Source of the DNA: Eledone cirrhosa | Taxonomy: Eukaryota | Assembly (NCBI GenBank): GCA_964016885.1 | Contig: OZ024743.1 | Coordinates: forward strand, 162,936,001-163,000,000 | Length of the DNA: 64,000 bases | Reading direction: 5' to 3' | Shown: piece by piece, positions 8,317-63,789 of the stretch | Layout of the letters: the number at the start of each line of letters is the position of its first letter | How positions within the stretch are numbered: the stretch's first letter is position 1 | Translations under genes and position numbers: made by a program | The notes under the pieces: model-generated | What the model was told of the DNA's origin: nothing | Database searches by the model: none | Seen by the model: the letters and a program-made list of their open reading frames with translations, nothing else

Positions 8317-9950
8317 GTAAGATTTCTTTCTGTTGATTTTATATTTGGGAATTGGCCATGCTCAGTATACAAAAAGTGGGATCCCAGGCAGGTTAATAGA
8401 GAAGAATTTCATATGTAATACATACACTTTTGATGAGTTGTAGTGCACCTGAACACTACACAATATTTTCATTATCATTATTATTATAAATAGAGCAAAT
8501 ATGCTCTGCTGGATGTGTAATGTTGACGTGCATAAAAGACAGAGCACAAGAAACTGGTTATCAGAGTTAGTTGTTGTAGTGCACAAAAGAAAACTGCAAG
8601 ATATGTGATGCATGTGAAAAATGCTAGTTGGGTGGAAAAGTGCTAAACAATGCAGGTAAAAAGAACCTGTAGAAAACAAAAATATACCTAGGCAGAAATG
8701 GTGAGGGATGATCTCAAGTGACTCAGCTTCACAAAGGAGATGACAACGAATTGCAACAAATGGAGTGACAACGTGTTAAAAATCACCCATCCTACCCATG
8801 TCAGAATTCTAGCTGTGACCATCTTTAGTATATCAGAAACTACATTGTCCAGTGTGTCCTTCTTTTCTTTAAGTGTTATTCGAGGAAGAATTGGCTGCTG
8901 TTTCTAACAAGTAGAATGGCCAAGTAGAGATACAAGTTCTCATTGGCTCTGCTTTCACTTTACAGCTCCACGGTACACCAACAAAAGAGCTTTTATATGA
9001 CCTGCTCAAAATAACAGCCAAATTCCCTTCCAACTACTGTCTTCGAAAGAACTCAATATAGTATAGTCAGTGCAGACTATAGGTATACTATGGGGTAAAT
9101 AGTAATGTGAGAAACCAGTCTTTTGTTGGTGATATCTTATGCAACCTACATGACATAGTGATGATGGCTCAGTGATGGCAACAAAATGTTCTTTCTTAAA
9201 AAGTTTATGATGTTTGACTGAGGATCTACAGAGGATCTACAATGATTAATCTATGGAAAGGCTGTTCATCCATGTTTTGTTGTTCTCACACAATAACATT
9301 ACATATCCATCGAAGTATGTTGCTTCATTTTTCTCCAGCTTTGACATGTTCTATGTGTTCACTGCCCATGTCTTGTTACCATGCAGCATCACACTTCGCA
9401 CACAGGCGTCATACAACCGAGCTTTCGTAGTCAACAGAAGTAGCAGTTCCCTAAACTTCTTCCATCCTGTCCTCATTCTTGCTACAATGCTCTTGGAGAA
9501 CCCTCATCCTCTGCTAATAATATCACCTAGGTAGTAGAAGCTATCAACCACTTCCATGGATTAGAAAAGATTTATATTATTTATTTTATTATTGTTGGCA
9601 TTCTTACTCTCAATTAACCCTGATGCACTCCTACCTGTACCTTGAATTCCTCACTTTACTTACAGCTCATCTGTACATGGCTTGCACTGTTCTTAGAAGC
9701 CACTCTTCTATACCTAGTTTCCTTAAGGACCACCAGGTGACAGATTGGGGTACTCTATCAGAGGCTTTCTTAGGTCGACAAAAGCTAGATATAGAGGCTT
9801 ATTTTTAGCTAAGAACCTCTTAAGAGTATGCCTCTATTATTCAAATTAATATTAAATTTGAATTGTAGAAAAGGAATAAATCATAGATCTACATTCAAAT
9901 GAAATATTCAGCTAATTAAATGCAACTAGTTAAATTTCTGTTTGTTTCAG

Positions 9951-27605: not shown

Positions 27606-28634
27606 ATTTTGTTTGTGGCATATATTAATGACATAGATGCCAACTTAAAGAATGCCACAGTACTGAAGTATGCAGATGACATCAAGCTGTACCTTGAGAT
27701 AAAAAGGACAGATCCTGAACACTATAGATCTTGCTTGCAATCTGACCTGGACACAATGCAACAATGGATCTCAGACTGGCAACTCAAGCTAGCTGTGGAC
27801 AAGTGCACCACCATGCATTTTGGGAGTAAAAACCCAGCGTCCACATACTCCCTCCACATCACTAGTATCAAAAAGTCTTCTCGTGAACGTGACCTGGGCA
27901 TTACTGTCAACAGCGATTTGCGTTGGGCGAAGCACGTCTCTAAAATTGTCAAGAGGGCTGAGGGTGTCTTAGCATCACTCAGCAAGACCTTTGTCAGCCG
28001 CTCTCCAGCTATCTATTTAAAGCTGTACATGGCTATGGTGCGGCCACACTTAGAATTTGCATCACCAGTCTGGAACCCCTATCTTGCTCAGAACTTTGAC
28101 CGCCTGGAAACTGTTCAGAGATGTGCAACCAAGCGAATACCCTCCATCAGGCATCTACCATACTCTGAATGCCTTGCTTCCCTGGGCATGGATACATTGA
28201 AACTCCGACGCCTGGCAACTGACTTGGTAAACACTCACAAAATTATTAACCATCTCGCCAACAACAACCCTGAGCACCTTTTTGATCTCCATGTGTCTAA
28301 CATACGTGGACATGCCTACAAAGTCAGAAAACAGCACAGCTCCCATGACTTTTGGAAACATTTTTCACGCTCAGAGTTGCTGAAGCATGAAACAAACTAC
28401 CTGCATCAGTTGTTAGCTGTCGAGACACTGCATCCTTTAAAACCTCCATGCTTCCCGAGATTCGCCAACACTACACCTAATGTTCCCCTTCCATACACAT
28501 ACACACACGTATATCATGACTCATACACTATTCACTTCCCTGACATTTGTATATTATTCTATGTACTATACATGCACCTTTGACGAGTTGTAGTGCACCT
28601 GAGCACTTTACACAATAATTTCATTATTATTATT
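27606..28634 (+). mobile_element. 5'-truncated CR1 LINE
   Basis: ORF 27597-28583 with YADD, ERDLGI, VRPHLEF; same family and tail as 18600-21520. Confidence 0.92.
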
Positions 28635-28725
28635 AAATGCTTTAAACCTTTTGTTTCTTCAAAAGTGAAGGTGACATTTAATCATGAGGGAAGAGTCCTC
28701 AAAGACTCCTTCCAGCGGGTCCTAA

Positions 28726-30580
28726 TAATAATATTATAATGAAAATGATTGTGTACAGTGCTCAATTCATCAAAGGTTCATGTTTGTACATAGAATAACG
28801 TACAAATGTCAGGAACGTAAACAATGTATGAGTCATGATATACATAGATACATGTGTGCGGGTGTATAGAGGGGGAATATTAGGTGTAGTGTTGGTGAAT
28901 TTCAGGAAGCATGGAAGTTTTGAAGGATACAGTGTCCTGACAGTTAACAACCGATGCAGGTAGTTTGTTACATGCTCTGAGCTTGAAAAATTGTTTCCGA
29001 AAATCATGGGAGCTGTGCTGTTTTCTGACTTTGTAGGCATACCCACAGGTGTTAAACACATGGAATTCAAAAAGGTGCTCAGGGTTGTTGTTGGCAAGAT
29101 GGTTAATAATTTTGTCGGTGTTTACAAAGTCAGTTGCCAGATGTCAGCTTTAATATATCCATGCCCAGGGAAGCAAGGAGTTCAGAGTATGGTAGATGCC
29201 TTATGAAGGGAATTTGCTTGGTTGCACACCTCTGAACAGCTTCCAGGTGAATATTCTGAGCAAGAAAGGGGGTCCAGACTGGTGACGCAAATTCTAAGTG
29301 TGGCCGCACCATAGCTATATACAACTACAAATAGATAGCTGGAGAGCAGCCGACAAAGGTCTTACTGAGTGATGCTAAGACACTCTCAGCCTGCTTGACA
29401 ATTTTAGAGATGCACTTTGTCAAACACATATTGCTGCTGACAGTAATACCTAGATTACATTCAGAAGACTTCCTGAGATTAGTGTTGGGAGGGGATATGT
29501 GAACGTTGGATTTTTCCTCCCAAAATGCATGGTGTTACACTTGTCCACAGCCAGCTTGAATTGCCAGTCTGTAATCCATTGCTGCATTGCTGCATGGAAA
29601 GATTTATTGTGTTTAAGATCTGTCCTTTTTATTTCAAAGTACAGCTCATGGCATTCTTTAAGTTGGCAACTATGTCATTAATATATGCAACAAACAAAAA
29701 GAGACCAAGAACAGATCCCTGTGGTACACCAGATGACATTTCATAGAGTAAAGAATGCTGTCCTAGAACCGTGACTACCTCTTTTCGACTAAGAATGAAG
29801 GACTTCAACCAGTTATAAAGATCATCTCTCCTACCATTGCAGAGAGTTTTGCCATAAGTCTTTTGTGTGGCACAGAATTAAAAGCTTTAGCAAAGTCAAG
29901 ATAAATAACATCCACCCATGAGCCGCCATCAGTGATCCGGGTGATGTCTTCAAGAAACTTGATAAGTTGATCACAGCAGCTGGAGTTAGGGATAAATCCA
30001 AATTGTGAGGGTTGGATAAGGTTGTAAGAATTCCAGAAGTTCCAGAGTGTTTCTTTGACACAGGATTCCATTAGTTTCACAATGCAGCTAGTAAGACTGA
30101 CTGGACGATAGTTGACAGGTGATGTGTGGTCACCCTTTTTGAACAGAGGAATGACACTGGCAGTTTTCCACTGCTCTGGAGTAACACTGATGTTAAGACA
30201 GATTTGAAAGAAGAGTGAAAGCTGGTGCAGAAGAAAGTACCCACCATGTTTGAGAAGCAGGTACATAACACCATCAAGACCAGGAGAGGTATAGTTGCAC
30301 TTATTCTTAAGGTGGTATCGCAGCATTGCAGGTGTAAATTCCAGAGTTGTTATAGAATTTTATGTCAGAGTTGGTGGAGATGGTACATTTTAGTTTTCAA
30401 CAGTAAAAAAAGCCTGCATAGCATTCAGCAATGAGTTCTGTTTCTTTGGGATCGACAGTAATCTGGTTTGTGTGGGGATTGCGAAGAGGACCAACTAGAG
30501 AGCGAGGTCCCTGCTTTGAATGTACTTATTTCCAGAACACATTGTTGTCAGGGTTAGTTGCTATACGCTGTTCAAATTCA
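28726..30580 (-). mobile_element. Degenerate CR1 LINE, inverted relative to the 27606 copy
   Basis: SPGLDG, NYRPVSLTS, YLDFAKAFNSVPH; same tail. Confidence 0.9.
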
Positions 30581-35950: not shown

Positions 35951-37699
35951 TATTATTAAAAAAACACAGAAGTAATGTAAGTAAGGATATATTGTGAGAT
36001 GTGCATGAATAAGTTAGATGAAAGTGAGAAAAAAATAATGAATAGAGGATGAATAATCTAACGTCAAAAAAATGTTTATGTTTACGAAGGATTTTTTCAA
36101 GGTGATATAAAGTAAGAATATAGTGTATGTGTAATAATTGATTCTATGTTAGGCGCAGTGAGTAAAGGTACAGATTAGGGGTTAGAAATTAAAAGAAAAA
36201 GCAAAAGAAAAGAAAAAAAAAGAAAAGGAAGAAAGAGAAGTGATGAATAGGAATGATATAGAATATGATAAATAACTTTGAAATAAGGTAGAAAGATGGG
36301 TATATTTTTAAAGAAGTATATATATATATATGTGCCTTTGAGAAAAGGATTCTGAATTGATAAAGTTTAGGATATTAGCTGTATACTTTATGGAAAGTTC
36401 TGTGGAATTTATGTAAGCAGATAGAAAACAAGTCAGTGCGTCTATTTATTATAGAATCTAAATTAGATATAATGGTAAATTTTTCATTCAGACATTCATA
36501 TCTTATTACTTCTTCTTGGGATTAATTTACATTTAGGACTTTTTAAGAATTAATATAATTTTATTTTCATAATATAAAACAAACATCGCAATTTTAGATA
36601 TTTGTTGTAGAGTTAAATCTTAATAAATATTCTCTTTTTGAGAAAGTGTGTTTTCGAAGATAGTTAAATCGGCAAGAGTCCATTTGCAAACAGACATACA
36701 CACTAATATATATATATATATATAATTTATACGTAGGATAAATTTCTATACTAAATATATAAAACATATTATTTTAACTTAAGATACTCTATAGTGTTTT
36801 AAAGATATTTAATGCTTTGATATTTCTAGATTTCTTTTGTCTATACTGATATAGCTGCATTTCCAGAATATACTCCTTTGGTATTTTAAATTTATTTTGT
36901 TATGGTTATGTTTACAAGTTATAATCCTTTAGTAAAATATTGATATTTGATTATCTCTATGCAAATGCATATGTGTATATTAACATGCATAAAAAGTGTT
37001 ATAGATTTTTTTGTGTCTATATATGTCTGTATATATACATGAGTGATGCGTGACGACGCACGCAAATATTTATTTATACATATGTATGTGTATATATGTA
37101 TGTGTATATATCTATGTGGTTGGGAGGTATGTTGCAGATATGCATAATATTAAACACATGAATGGTAATCGTATATATGAGGACATGAATGTTAATCGTA
37201 TATATTTGTATATATATATACTGTGAAATTTTTATAACACAAAGAATGTATAGCAGTGATTAAGAGAAATCATTTACGTTTTGTATGGCTATATTGTTGG
37301 CTTGAGTAAACATAATTTCTATTTTCAGGACGTGCGTATCTATATGTATATATATATACATATATATTTGTATGTCTTTGCATAAAATACTGATCTCTAT
37401 AGCAAGGGTACATTTTGAACTCAGATTTTGATATATTGATCTCAAGTTTCTAAACTAAACATATAGTCATTATTGAACAATGTTTAATTTCTCATATTAT
37501 ATATCTATGTCCCATTCATGAATATTGATACTTATATTTTTATTATTCATTTCCTATAAATTGTTAACTCAACTTAATATGACATGACGTAAAGTTTTCA
37601 TTGTCCCCCCTCTCTCTATATAGTATTTCTCTCTCTTGAGTTTCTCTCTCTGTTGCTTTCCTTTGATTTTATTATTTCTTCCTTTTCTTTTTTTTCTTT

Positions 37700-37885
37700 T
37701 TTCTTTTTTAATTTTTATTTATTTTTTATTTTTTATTTTTTATTTTTTATTTTTTATTTATTTTTTATTTTTTATTTTTTATTTTTTATTTATTTTTTAT
37801 TTTTATTTTTTATTTTTTATTTTTTATTTTTTATTTTTTATTTTTTATTTTTTATTTTTTATTTTTTATTTTTTATTTTTTATTT

Positions 37886-37922
<37 letters not shown>

Positions 37923-38193
37923 ATTTTTTATTTTTTATTTTTTATTTTTTATTTTTTATTTTTTATTTTTTATTTTTTATTTTTTATTTTTTATTTTTTA
38001 TAATTTATTTTTTATTTTTTTATTTTTTATTTTTTATTTTTTATTTTTTATTTTTTATTTTTTATTTTTTATTTTTTATTTTTTATTTTTTATTTTTTAT
38101 TTTTTATTTTTTATTTTTTATTTTTTATTTTTTATTTTTTATTTTTTATTTTTTATTTTTTATTTTTTATTTTTTATTTTTTATTTTTTATTT

Positions 38194-38230
<37 letters not shown>

Positions 38231-38326
38231 ATTTTTTATTTTTTATTTTTTATTTTTTATTTTTTATTTTTTATAATTTATTTTTTATTTTTTTATTTTT
38301 TATTTTTTATTTTTTATTTTTTATTT

Positions 38327-38363
<37 letters not shown>

Positions 38364-38409
38364 ATTTTTTATTTTTTATTTTTTATTTTTTATTTTTTAT
38401 TTTTTATTT

Positions 38410-38446
<37 letters not shown>

Positions 38447-38532
38447 ATTTTTTATTTTTTATTTTTTATTTTTTATTTTTTATTTTTTATTTTTTATAAT
38501 TTATTTTTTTATTTTTTATTTATTTTTTATTT

Positions 38533-38569
<37 letters not shown>

Positions 38570-38733
38570 ATTTTTTATTTTTTATTTTTTATTTTTTATT
38601 TTTTATTTTTTATTTTTTATTTTTTATTTTTTATTTTTTATTTTTTATTTTTTATTTTTTTATTTATTTATTTATTTTTTATTTATTTTTTTTTAATATT
38701 TATTTTTTATTTTTTATTTTTTATTTTTTTTAT
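37700..38733. repeat. ~1-kb (TTTTTTA)n heptamer satellite
   Basis: Directly visible; recurring TATAATTTA interruptions near 38000, 38273 and 38496. Confidence 0.97.
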
Positions 38734-56498: not shown

Positions 56499-56910
56499 TG
56501 CATATATACATACATACACATATATATACACATACATACACACTTATATATACATATAATTATGGGTGGGGGGGGATTACATTTATTAGTGAGAAATAGT
56601 AAATATATATAGTTTTCAAGGAACATAGAGTCATAACCTGAAGTTAAAGCATTATATATGTTTACTTAATGGTATCAGTTTTAGGAAATGATATTTGTAA
56701 GAAGGAAAGCAAAATTATGTAGTTCATCAGTAGTAGAATATTAATTATAGGTTAACTAAATTAAAAATAGTTTATATATTAATTTCTAAAGTGTATATTA
56801 ATTAGGTTTATAATATTTAAAGCAGAATTATGTAGTTCATCAGTAGTAGAATATTAATTATAGGTTAACTAAATTAAAAATAATTTATATATTAATTTCT
56901 AAAGTGTATA

Positions 56911-57574
56911 TTAATTAGGTTTATAATATTTAAAGGTTTTTCTCAGTTTATGATTACACGATATTATTAATTCCTGTCGCTTATTTAATAGGATATCCTT
57001 AGATTTCATTATTTCGAAAAGTTCTTGGGAACATAATCTACATTCATTTCTACTATTTTGATAAGGGGTGGCCCTTTTGAGCACACTCCAGGTCAGGTCA
57101 TATTCTATATTCCTCTTTCTATAACTATTAATTATTTCAGCTAGAGATGTTGTATTAGCTAGTGCGGCATTTTTAAAACTATGTTTGTGGGTATTAAATC
57201 TTACCTTAAAATTGTTAGAGGTAGCTCCTATATATGAATAAATTGAGTCCTTAGTGTTAACTTTACATTTATATACTATGTTATTAACAAGGCAATTTCC
57301 TTTTAATGGACAGTTTGCCTTTTTTCTACAGTTACAACTTTTCGTGAATCCTGTATCTGAGGAGATATTATGGTTAGTTTGATGTACTGGTGGTATACTC
57401 ATTGTTTTTTTACATGTATATGCATTATAGGCACTTATATTTTGTTTTATGTTTTTGGTTGTTGAGTAGGAGAATTTAACCGTTGATCTATTTAAGATTT
57501 GATGGTATTTGTGGTTTGGCGGGAAGTTTTTCTCTAGGATATTAAAGAATTTTTTAGGTATATTATCCTTTTTT
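56911..57574 (-). CDS. PLE RT C-terminus, CxCx5Cx5C linker and GIY-YIG endonuclease (5'-truncated, open)
   Basis: FPPNHKYHQILNRSTVKFSYS...CNCRKKANCPLKGNC..NIVY...YIGAT..FKVRFNTH...CRLCSQE...LNKRQE..SCNH. Confidence 0.88.
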
Positions 57575-58717
57575 AGGTTATGACTCTATGTTCCTTGAAA
57601 ACTATATATATTTACTATTTCTCACTAATAAATTTAATGCCCCCCCCCCCCAATAATTATATGTATATATAAGTGTGTATGTATGTGTACATATATGTGT
57701 ATGTATGTATATATGCATGTATGTATATATATATATAAACTCTAAGCTATTTATCACTGCTCCCCAAGGTGAGCTGAATTTTGTAATCCCATACAAACGG
57801 CTGTTATTTCTAGCACTATGTGTGGGACGTTAGAGGACTGGAATAAGCCGTGTGCAAAACCTCGTGTATTTTCGCTACGCTAACCAGACCTTAGATATTT
57901 TTCTAAGGTTGAGTTATTTTATTTTTATCTGGGTGCCTATTGATAAACACAGAAAAAGTTGATTAACTCACTGCTAATTAGTTAATTATTTTACTATTAT
58001 ACCATCCTTTGTGAAACATGTTTGATATATATATATGTGTGTGTATGTGTATATATATGTATATATATATATGTGTATAAGTATATATATATATATATAT
58101 ATATATTATTTTTATATTCTTTTAATTTCCCCTCATCTTTAACAGCACTTTTCAACTGCATCTAACTCTTATTTATCATATCTATATTAGTATAATTTTA
58201 TCAATATAAATATACCCATCAATTAAATTAATTTTATATTCTTTTCATAGATGTATTTTTTCACTAACATTCTTATCTTAAAACTTTGGTCACCTTAGAT
58301 ATTTGTATTGGCATTACTATTTTATAACAGCAACTGCTTATATACCTTTCACTGACCACCTGACCTATTTTCACCCCTAAAATAAGCTCCAATTACTACT
58401 ATTTTACCATTTGGCCAATTATTAACTTGCTATTGGTTAACTCTAAACCTCTTACCAAACAGACAGAATATATTAGATCTTTGTTGGTTTTATTCAATGA
58501 ACAAATAAAATTATTTCTGAGGTCAGCAAAATAATCCTTCATTCATAATATTCTTTTCCATCCCAAACTGAAATCTACCTTCCTCTACCCATAATTTAAG
58601 GTTCTTCTACTACTATATTACTATCTTGACCCTCACTATCTCCTGATTGGTCAATTCAAAACCTGTTCCCAAACAGACCTATTGTATTGAATCTTTGTTT
58701 TTTTCAATAAACAAATA

Positions 58718-60451: not shown

Positions 60452-60482
<31 letters not shown>

Positions 60483-60909
60483 TGCCCCCTCGTTATCGTG
60501 TATGGCCATTGCACGATATACCATTATTAATAATTATTAATTCATTCTATCGTGCAATGCCTGTTCGTGAACATATTTTTTAAAGTGAGTAAAGACTGTG
60601 CACTGAGCCAATCCCACTCTCTGAGCAACAGTAGCTATAACAAGAATAGAAGAAAAGATCAACATCATCGGTAATTACTGAGCCGCAGGTTTTATATTGG
60701 AGTTATCCCAGTTTCCTGAGTTGCCTTCTCCTAGAAGAATGCCCTGACAAAGGCTAGGGGTCCTTCACTCCCAGTGGTTTAACTGCGTGACTAGGTGTCC
60801 AGCCCGACTATTTCTATGTCCTCCGCGCATATACATACATATGCACCCATGTATATACACATATACATATACATACATATGTACATGTGTATATACATAT
60901 TTACACACT

Positions 60910-61100
60910 TTTGGATGGCCGTTGACTCTTATGGGTTCTTCCGCCCTTTGTCAGGTTTTGCTTTTTGTCCTGCAGGGTGTCCAAAATCACCCTCCTCACC
61001 AAGTAAACTTAGTGGGGTTGCCGGTTTAGTCGCCGACGACCCAACCATGCGACAGGTTGTACTGGGTTACATGTTACCAGTAGCACTGAAGAGTGACCCG
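60910..61100. repeat. Dispersed repeat (also at ~61595-61770 and inverted at ~6785-6950)
   Basis: Shared TTTGTCCTGCAGG.TGTCCAAA.TCACCCTCCTCACCAAG...GTACTGGG.TACATGTTAC. Confidence 0.75.
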
Positions 61101-61810
61101 ACATAAATATATATACATACATACATATATATATACATACATACATATATATATACATACATACATATATACATACATACATATATACATACATACATAT
61201 ATACATGGTGGCTGCCAACTCGTTTTCGAGTACGGCCACTACTTTATATCCATGTAGGAGAACCCCTACCGATGCGCTGAACAAGTGTGACTTTTTAATC
61301 CAGCCAGCGACTTGAACACTCTAGTACAAACACTACACTTGTGACAATTATTGACACATAGTGCTGGGCCCATGGTACCATGTGATGACAAGTGCAGAGA
61401 GATCTCCAGATATAAAGCAATGCCTGTGCCATGAAGCTTTTATAGTGAGTAAAGGTACTGCATAAAGCCAGTCCCACTCTCTTAACCAAGATGATATTTA
61501 CCAAAAAGAAGAACAAGTCAACATCATTGGATACCATCAGGGTTGCAGGTGTTATATCAGAGTTTTCCTTCTCCTAGAATTCTGCCTTGCTTTTGGATGG
61601 CCATTGACTCTTAAGAGCTCCTTTGCCCTTTGACAGATTTTGTTTTTAGTCCTGCAGGATGTCCAAAGTCACCCTCCTCACCAAGAAACCTTGGTGGGGT
61701 TGCCAGTTTAGTCGCCAACAACCCGACCATGGGACAGTTTGTACTGGGATACATGTTACTGGTGACCTGACATACATACATACTTACATACATACATATA
61801 TATATACATG

Positions 61811-62760
61811 ATGGCTGCAAACTCTTGCAATCGCTTGTCAGATTCAGATGTGGGATGCTTGGATATGGCTTTTCAAACCTGCTAGAGACTTGCACTCTTT
61901 CACACACTGACGACAACTATGGATCTCTCTGGCTTGAGGTCATGCATCAGGTTGCCCGTGAACCCTCACAACATCGTGGAGATCATAGTTCACTGGTTCT
62001 CTTTGAACATGGCTGCGACTGTGGCTCCTGAGACCAGATTTGCTCAAGCAAATTTTTCCACACTCAGGGCACTTCAATTCAATGGAGACACCGATCGTTT
62101 CGAGAGATACACCAGGGCATTGCTTACGCACATCCCATTTGATCTTCTCGTGCTCTATGCGTCTGTCCTCAAAATTATGGACCCCATCATTCACCATTCC
62201 ACGCCAAGTTTCTCTTTCAAGAGCTTCTATCTCCCAGTCAGCCATCATCAAACCAGTTTTTTTCAATGTGTCCTTTACGCAATCCTTGAATCGGAGCTTT
62301 GGTTTGTGAGGTGGTCTCTTACCCCCACAAAGCTCGCCATACAAGAGTTGTTTTGGGATTCGATCATCCTCCATTCTTCCGAGGTGTCTGGTCCATCGCA
62401 AACGCCGTTGATGGATGATACTCTCAATGCTCCGACACTCACTTCTCTCAAGGACCTCAAAATCACTCACATGCATCTGCCACTTGATTCCGAGCATCTT
62501 TCTGAGACACTGCTGGTGAAACCGTTCCAGTCTGTGGATATGCTGTTTGTAGGCAACCCATGTCTCACATGCATACAACAAAGCTGACAGTACACATGCA
62601 GCATACACTCTCACCTTGGTCCTCATTGTGATTCCTCGCCTGCACCAAAGACGGTTGTTGAGCCTTCCAAATGACTCACTTCCCCTACTAACACATAGAC
62701 CAACATCTGCATCCAGAGAGCAGGTCACACTCAGAATACTCCCCAAATTATCAATTGAGA
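61811..62760 (-). mobile_element. 5'-truncated RTE LINE
   Basis: ORF 61940-62893: LGS, LLYACETW, LERFHQQCLR, RLRW..H..RM...RIPKQLLYGEL, C-terminal C2H2 finger. Confidence 0.9.
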
Positions 62761-62795
62761 TTGGGAGACGGTAGAAGGATAATAAAGAGAATGAG

Positions 62796-63636
62796 AGAGG
62801 GATGTGTAGAAGTATGAAGTTGGAGGGTGAGATGTGATAGGGATCAGGAGCTGTAAGGTCTGAAACAGCTGCTGTATTTGGTTGGTGTTGCATTTTCGGC
62901 CAATGCTGTGGAATGAGTGGAAGATACTAAGTAGGAATTGTTGAAATTGTGGAGTTGGGTAGTAAAAGGTAGTACAGCTGCTGTGATTGGTTAGTATAGC
63001 ATGGTCGGCTAATGCTATCTTTAAGTTGGTGGGGTGGGGGTGCTGAGGCTGCAGAGGGCCGATGGGCTGCCTCGGGGTGGGCGATGGGGGAAGGGAAAAA
63101 CGAGCGAGGAGGGGGATCGATGGTGGAAGGAAGTGATGGGAGGGGACGGGAGGAAGAGGAAAGCATGGGGGGGGGGGGGGGGGCAGGTACATCTGCCTAT
63201 GTAAGCTGAGGTTTCCCCTATCTTGTTCGGCAAGTGGGGTTTTTCAGCCCTTGTTTTCTTCTTCCCCCTGTCTCCTCCTTTCACTTCCTTCCACCGTCGA
63301 TCTTCTTCCTCGTTCGTTTTTTTTCCCCTTTCGCCTACCCCGAGGCGGCCCATCGGGCCTCTGTATCCTCGGTACCCCCACCCCAGTAGCTTGAAGATGG
63401 CATTGGCCGATTGCGCTAACTAATCATAGCAGCTGTGTTGGACCCCAGAGATTTTGTATTGCTTTTTGCTGCCCAATTCTACAATTTCAATAATTCTTGT
63501 TTGGTGTCTTCTATTCTCAACTCATTCTACAGGATTGGCCGAAGGAGCAGCACCGACTAGATGTAGCGGGTATTTTGGACTTTGTAGTTTTTGTTTTTTG
63601 TCACATCTCACTTTCCATGTTTTTGTGTATCTTTCT
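62796..63636 (+). ncRNA. Candidate long G·U-rich hairpin RNA (arms ~62796-63170 and ~63247-63636)
   Basis: Arms pair almost continuously only if G·U is allowed on the + strand; hand alignment gives roughly 70 G·U versus about 3 A·C positions. Confidence 0.7.
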
Positions 63637-63669
63637 GTATGTACATAAATCTGTATACATACCCGCACA

Positions 63670-63789
<120 letters not shown>

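Follow-up and report, generated by a model that had tools for sequence, protein, structure and literature searches.

How the genome of Eledone cirrhosa came to hold a long hairpin that is studded with G·U wobbles on one strand is the question raised by this locus. The window, a stretch of 64,000 nucleotides (assembly GCA_964016885.1, contig OZ024743.1), is predicted to fold on its + strand from 62760 to 63700 into a single long stem (-607 kcal/mol, z -59), whereas the opposite (-) strand of the hairpin region gives a much weaker fold (-405 kcal/mol). When the arms were aligned with each other (62797-63169 and 63252-63636), the stem, about 370 bp long, contained 266 Watson-Crick columns, 76 G·T columns, 4 A·C columns and 9 others, and an independent pairwise alignment gave 74 G·T versus 3 A·C. 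The 76 wobble Gs are found on both sides, 49 in the left arm and 27 in the right. We propose that a Penelope-like element in head-to-head arrangement gave rise to a double-stranded transcript, that ADAR hyper-edited this RNA, and that reverse transcription carried it into germline DNA, and we put the probability of this reading at roughly 85%.

The wobble skew sets the hairpin apart. The control set was 139 inverted-repeat matches in 0.74 Mb of masked sequence (the window plus other loci, partly overlapping). There, the ratio of G·T to A·C was 71:5 for the hairpin (p 5e-16), the runner-up reached p 0.01, and the median fraction was 0.5. Within that 0.74 Mb, a search for other G·U-skewed inverted repeats, which the earlier note had proposed, returned the hairpin alone as strongly skewed. 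Apparent skew in L055, L141, L142 and the microsatellite part of L140 was a TG/CA microsatellite artefact, so these tracts were masked and the control was rerun, and seven small hairpins with mild skew were ordinary when inspected. We note that a long inverted repeat in the window (27607-29699) overlaps a LINE-type ORF and has a nonsignificant G·T skew (36:56). We also note a near-perfect inverted repeat of about 750 bp located 16 to 18 kb right of the window (L140:6950-7685 and about 8495-9250), which is purine-rich on one strand, has arms about 800 bp apart and showed no substitutions between them; it is a young, potential ADAR substrate.

Layout and parent family of the hairpin

The features of the locus, in window coordinates, are as follows.

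61770..61809, no strand: the LINE's 3'-terminal microsatellite, (ACAT)n/(AT)n
61810..62748, - strand: 5'-truncated, unedited LINE fragment, from alignment to 19 paralogues
62745..62751, no strand: LINE/Penelope junction, with AAAT in both parents at the break and 1-3 extra bases
62750..63254, - strand: left arm, covering family positions 1163 to 641 of a Penelope-like 3' UTR in antisense orientation, from paralogue alignment
62750..62796, + strand: outer segment of the left arm, 9/28 As changed, pairing partner now absent
62797..63169, + strand: paired portion of the left arm, 52/136 As changed within 62797-63166
63167..63183, + strand: run of 17 Gs in place of an A-rich purine tract, from paralogue alignment
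63170..63251, + strand: loop, the unpaired end of the left arm, from folding and paralogue alignment
63252..63254, + strand: apex junction of the antisense and sense arms, with 3-nt microhomology TGT
63252..63636, + strand: right arm, covering family positions 727 to 1119 of that 3' UTR in sense orientation, from paralogue alignment
63637..63789, no strand: mixed microsatellite and then (TA)n, the usual target type for the Penelope-like family

The changed element occupies 62750-63636 in full and starts 5' of 62796, where the earlier note had begun it. That note had also placed the end of the hairpin near a (TA)n tract, and indeed, a mixed microsatellite begins at 63637 and gives way to pure (TA)n at 63671. 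As an exact pattern, the apex junction occurs once in the genome.

Both arms match one dispersed repeat, which in longer copies is the 3' UTR downstream of an ORF whose motifs are of the reverse-transcriptase and GIY-YIG types. In four loci (L063, L064, L066 and L067), pieces of this ORF that lie upstream of the arms read FD..., RDDGL and VIY...YIG by eye, and the Penelope ORF proteins fell into Atlas clusters with RVT_1/HTH_animal at 0.95-0.99. Judged by ORF pieces and sequence motifs, the family has a single ORF in which the reverse transcriptase is followed by a C-terminal GIY-YIG endonuclease. The Hydra clade of Craig et al. (PMC8557442) is described, in the portion of that paper available, by DKT, CxCX5C, CxxC/CxH and RWK motifs, a C-terminal GIY-YIG, (TA)n targets and the lack of CCHH. 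The family reads HSDKT (DKT), CNCPDRSTC (the CxCX5C linker), CNLC (CxxC) and CKH (CxH), has no CCHH, and has both (TA)n targets and inverted/tandem structure; L066 reads RWR in place of RWK. Simple motif scans found no canonical hammerhead ribozyme in the family majority, a Pfam search with three Penelope ORFs and the LINE ORF returned 0 families, and a PDB search with the Penelope ORFs gave no match. The arm sequences fit a 3' UTR from a Penelope-like retroelement of the Hydra clade.

Head-to-head arrangement was seen in 17 of 42 family loci picked from the search matches. Because such insertion is ordinary in the parent family, the hairpin itself needs no special cause. Moreover, eight derived (non-majority) bases are common to both arms, and we conclude that both arms came from one parent copy. 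At least one arm reaches the element's 3' end in all 25 of 25 hand-picked two-orientation loci, and neither arm does so in the hairpin. A family of about 3,000 copies (2724 first-look candidates) was considered, but exact patterns gave just 27 and 15 matches; thus, it is tens of copies, and not thousands, that were screened for further editing.

Other repeats lie nearby or within family loci. In L064 and L065, two or three different Penelope families are nested inside 10 kb, and L064 has a hammerhead-like core after (TA)n at one end. The window contains part of another Hydra-type Penelope family, a C-terminal fragment (56911-57585, - strand) with a CNCRKKANC linker and VY...YIG, near a 113-bp tandem duplication (56706-56935), and about 155 copies of TTTTATT at 37662-38729. 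Finally, Rep/helicase ORF pieces, which we take to be Helitron-like, adjoin a Penelope-like family copy at L061:4666-7882 (- strand).

Direction and context of the changes

How the wobbles arose can be read from the paralogues. When the majority of 29 paralogues served as the reference and both arms were scored on the + strand, 100 of 272 As (about 37%) had become G, 73/186 in the left arm and 27/86 in the right, whereas C>T changes on the same strand numbered 1 and 2. The paralogues had 0 to 6 changes of either kind each (pooled, 83/5526 and 51/3422, about 1.5%), and binomial p values for the left and right arms were 1e-81 and 3e-28. An ancestral A underlies 48/49 of the wobbles in the left arm and 26/27 in the right, and the earlier contention that they did not come from C>T holds in both arms. 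Four A>G changes are common to both arms. The 17-G run, where 10/10 As are now G, has one more G in the contigs of runs X1 and X2, and its A>G count is probably inflated by slippage; without this run and the outer segment, the paired zone still has the 52 changed As listed above.

Among the family copies examined, one-way change of this kind stood out only in the window. Across 121 family segments, it exceeded 10% only in the two window arms (36% and 31%), and the next value was 9.5%. Genome-wide patterns with R at every A gave two sets of other matches, 26 that lacked G at all 234 positions and 14 that had a single G across 126, and the window, included by construction, had 3/9 G in each. Pattern searches with forced edits returned the window alone or one older, unedited copy (L076) and, within tens of copies, no second hyper-edited family copy. 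Raised T>C in L035, L073, L074, L122, L133 and L137 was traced to shared subfamily ancestry and not to private editing. We note that this diverged subfamily has 16 T>C (sense) versus 3 A>G among 51 diagnostic differences, with many transversions, and that its antisense strand has only a weakly ADAR-like 5' context (A7 T6 G2 C1); the T>C changes could be plain lineage divergence or the mark of an edited founder. The earlier note had added that editing and write-back possibly occurred repeatedly. We reject repeated rounds because our searches, which covered tens of copies, found no intermediate ones, and 37% fits a single pass.

The bases that precede the changed As carry a second signal. With unchanged As as the control, the share of changed As varied with the preceding (5') base (T, 43/83; A, 44/99; C, 7/38; G, 6/52; chi2 p 1.2e-6), the order was identical in each arm separately, and depletion of 5' G was pronounced (Fisher p 1e-5). 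Of the As followed by a 3' G, 30/68 had changed (p 0.15), and the 3' base effect was nonsignificant. The present-day 5' neighbors of the 76 wobble Gs are T at 36, A at 22, G at 12 and C at 6. An ancestral G precedes the wobble G in 3/76 cases, versus 36/140 for ancestral Gs, which agrees with the earlier tally of 2 in about 40. Pooled paralogue changes on the A-rich strand had no 5'-G avoidance (27/1277 after G versus 18/2451 after A). Hyper-editing motifs are reported to be depleted of 5' G (PMC4365171), in all groups according to the available text of PMC5625713, which also gives a weak 3'-G preference for invertebrates, including octopus. The hairpin, with its 5' G depleted and its 3' G not significantly enriched, matches that pattern. 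Thus, the neighbor test against the ADAR motif departs from background in the expected direction on the 5' side, and the 3' side falls short of significance. We infer ADAR as the enzyme from this dependence, which reads as its signature in the sequence.

Selection over time for a functional, G·U-rich hairpin RNA, or ordinary mutation by CpG decay, would be another way to fill a stem with wobbles, and the exceptional stability of the stem on one strand only is what such selection might produce. Wobbles, however, could be made by A>G or C>T, and 74 of 76 were made by A>G. Moreover, 9/28 As changed where the pairing partner is absent, indels and other substitutions were free to accumulate in both arms, and an Rfam search of the hairpin gave miRNA-like matches below threshold and no family reaching it. 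CpG decay would have left C in front of the wobble Gs, as the earlier note argued, and C is instead their rarest 5' neighbor. We regard both as barely credible, and selection for wobble stacking, which that note had kept as an alternative, is opposed by the polarity, the changes without a partner and the free indels. The proposal at the core of that note, that an edited hairpin RNA was written back to DNA, draws support from the A>G polarity, the ADAR-direction neighbors and the unchanged LINE next door. The perfect-looking G·U stem is then a by-product of I·U pairs read as G·U, and the copy is probably functionally inert.

Entry into the chromosome

Short-read contigs bear on whether the Gs stand in DNA. 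Runs X1 to X3 come from one sample, perhaps the assembly's own, and their 1.4 Gb of contigs point to whole-genome DNA. Their short-read contigs matched the window with 0 other letters over 62706-63234, 1 over 62706-63238 and 0 over 62893-63166, and the contigs of X1 and X2 span the LINE junction; RAD runs X4 to X6 had no locus-specific coverage. The check on DNA reads that had been suggested earlier therefore bears out the left arm and the LINE junction, and the right arm and apex stand in the assembly, not spanned by independent contigs. One X2 contig continues for 69 letters past 63238 that fail to align on the window, possibly a chimeric path through the repeat. An assembly or sequencing artefact, whether a fold-back chimera or a strand-specific error, might draw on that missing span and on the possible identity of the samples, but the contigs reproduce the left arm almost letter for letter. 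Moreover, the right arm holds 21- and 7-nt segments absent from the left arm, together with private substitutions, which a fold-back read cannot make. We conclude that the right arm is not a fold-back artefact, and the chance of any such error is very small.

The adjoining LINE fragment, which we take to be RTE-like, has an ORF in LINE-type C-terminal clusters (RVT_1 23%, zf-C2H2), and compared with 19 paralogues it had A>G at 1/219 and T>C at 2/255 among 25 substitutions in total (2.7% divergence). The A>G changes stop at the LINE boundary. The hairpin adjoins the LINE as had been noted, with the junction at 62748/62750 and not at 62760. The implied RTE role was not supported, as the LINE is unedited and lies on the strand opposite to the edited RNA. 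A chimera made by simple RTE template switching was likewise rejected: captured RNA should share the strand of the LINE RNA, and a switch from that RNA would leave T>C on the + strand as the trace of editing, whereas the hairpin has the opposite. The AAAT at the break fits either loss of the outer left arm in a microhomology join or two cDNAs inserted jointly. Private changes amount to about 2% in the arms, and neither this value nor the LINE divergence gives the order of events. We note that three related 3' ends starting (A)TG(A/G)TGGCTGC lie in the same orientation within microsatellite tails at 60452-61852, where a repeat of 170 bp also occurs twice, at 60908 and 61590; this cluster suggests a serial insertion of elements into each other's tails.

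We propose the following route. A head-to-head insertion with both arms from one parent copy, the part that the alignments display, would have been transcribed through both arms on the + strand, and the transcript would have folded back. ADAR, if it is the enzyme, would have deaminated about 37% of the As in one pass, and a reverse transcriptase, probably the element's own, may have begun at the sense arm and read each I as G. The cDNA would then have been inserted at a (TA)n site, and both outer ends would have been lost afterwards, the left one probably through the RTE insertion. In a variant of the same scheme, sense and antisense transcripts of one locus would pair and the enzyme would jump between them to give the same product. 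The 9/28 changes in 62750-62796, where a partner is lacking, indicate that the right arm was longer, or a separate sense strand was present, at the time of editing.

Which enzyme wrote the copy is a separate matter. Because the sense arm ends toward (TA)n, the Penelope enzyme seems the likelier writer, and a LINE enzyme acting in trans is a doubtful one. Both outer ends of the hairpin are absent and its flanks are microsatellites, leaving no readable target-site duplication or priming end. Moreover, no unedited donor was found by exact patterns of the apex junction or of the shared derived bases, which would miss diverged copies, nor among the best 40 candidates per search.

Insertion of a cDNA at a new site may not have been required. 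The transcript of a resident hairpin could have been edited and its cDNA could have replaced the locus by gene conversion (retroprocessing), and the derivation of both arms from one copy, the want of a donor by exact patterns and the unreadable target-site duplication are all compatible with write-back in place. The conversion tract, however, would have to cover both arms and end exactly at the LINE junction, and the donor searches, being exact-match, are weak. To our knowledge, animals rarely show conversion of a hairpin locus by cDNA, and we consider in-place replacement improbable.

Alternatively, everything might have happened in one step, with ADAR deaminating the RNA half and the DNA half of a self-primed, RNA:DNA fold-back insertion intermediate before integration. 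Self-priming on an antisense template has been proposed for head-to-head repeats (PMC3846280, in its available text), no donor would be required, and the four A>G changes common to both arms would be accommodated. The would-be DNA arm, however, shows roughly the change rate of the RNA arm, with 27 changes seen in the right arm and 32 expected after adjustment for context. Such similar rates suggest that both arms were RNA and argue against a hybrid intermediate. Wild-type ADAR, as described in the portion of PMC12925331 available, edits the DNA of hybrids at the dA·C mismatches of model substrates, and right-arm changes of that type were found at 5/148 sites, near background. One-step editing is likewise improbable, and we retain an RNA hairpin, edited and then reverse-transcribed, as the source of the locus.

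Consequences and known systems

Edits from A to I normally vanish with the RNA. Here, about 100 edits, probably from one molecule, have been fixed in a chromosome. As they now stand in the chromosome, the editing happened in cells contributing to the germline, and a heavily edited RNA was still fit for reverse transcription and integration. The edits also show that both arms were on one strand before integration, which bears on how the head-to-head repeats of Penelope elements form (PMC3846280, as far as its available text goes). Moreover, such copies distort repeat ages and may mask true editing sites.

Whether this was a single accident is a further question. For one copy of one family the pattern is in hand, and we lean slightly toward the view that ADAR recurrently hypermutates Penelope-like elements in the germline of E. 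cirrhosa, an invertebrate counterpart of APOBEC editing. Inverted insertions would recurrently yield double-stranded RNA, ADAR would rewrite it, and the elements' reverse transcriptase would fix the edits in DNA. If so, edited copies would allow past ADAR activity in the germline to be dated, and they would mark the strand in studies of how Penelope elements insert. A published deaminase screen sought APOBEC G>A in LTR elements and, going by its available text, did not target A>G Penelope hairpins (PMC4866542). We found no report of endogenous ADAR-hyperedited retrotransposon copies in the literature outside subscription journals.

Several known systems resemble the hairpin in part. Hyper-editing of repeats at the RNA level includes Penelope in lizard, and octopus shows very high levels of it (Porath et al., PMC5625713 and PMC4365171, in the sections available), and the substrate class and neighbor preference are the same; unlike those RNA-DNA differences, the Gs of the hairpin stand in DNA. 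The window copy resembles Hydra-clade elements (PMC8557442, available part) in its family's C-terminal GIY-YIG-type domain, DKT, CxCX5C and CxxC/CxH motifs, (TA)n targets and adjacent inverted, 5'-truncated copies. It differs in the RWR for RWK, in the lack of a canonical hammerhead by simple motif scan, in being hypermutated and in missing both outer ends.

APOBEC "DNA-edited" LTR retrotransposons (Knisbacher and Levanon, PMC4866542; Zaranek et al., PMC2873906) are likewise marked by a host deaminase, by clustered, one-way, context-dependent changes polarised against the family majority, and by later integration; the available text of PMC4866542 reports none in 19 invertebrate genomes. APOBEC, however, converts C to U on the cDNA, gives G>A on the sense strand and needs no hairpin, whereas here A>G runs on one molecular strand through both the sense and the antisense arm. 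Accordingly, an APOBEC-edited retroelement was discounted, as G>A was found at just 1/42 on the sense arm.

A further likeness is to avian retroviruses, in which A-to-G hypermutation has been described in an inverted repeat of avian leukosis virus (Hajjar and Linial 1995) and in RAV-1 U3 (Felder 1994), both as related in the available text of PMC12925331. There too, an ADAR-type A>G change struck an inverted repeat of a reverse-transcribing element, at nearly 50% of As compared with 37% in the hairpin. Unlike those exogenous viruses, the hairpin is an endogenous, nonviral, Penelope-like element that resides in a chromosome and has since gained about 2% further substitutions per arm.
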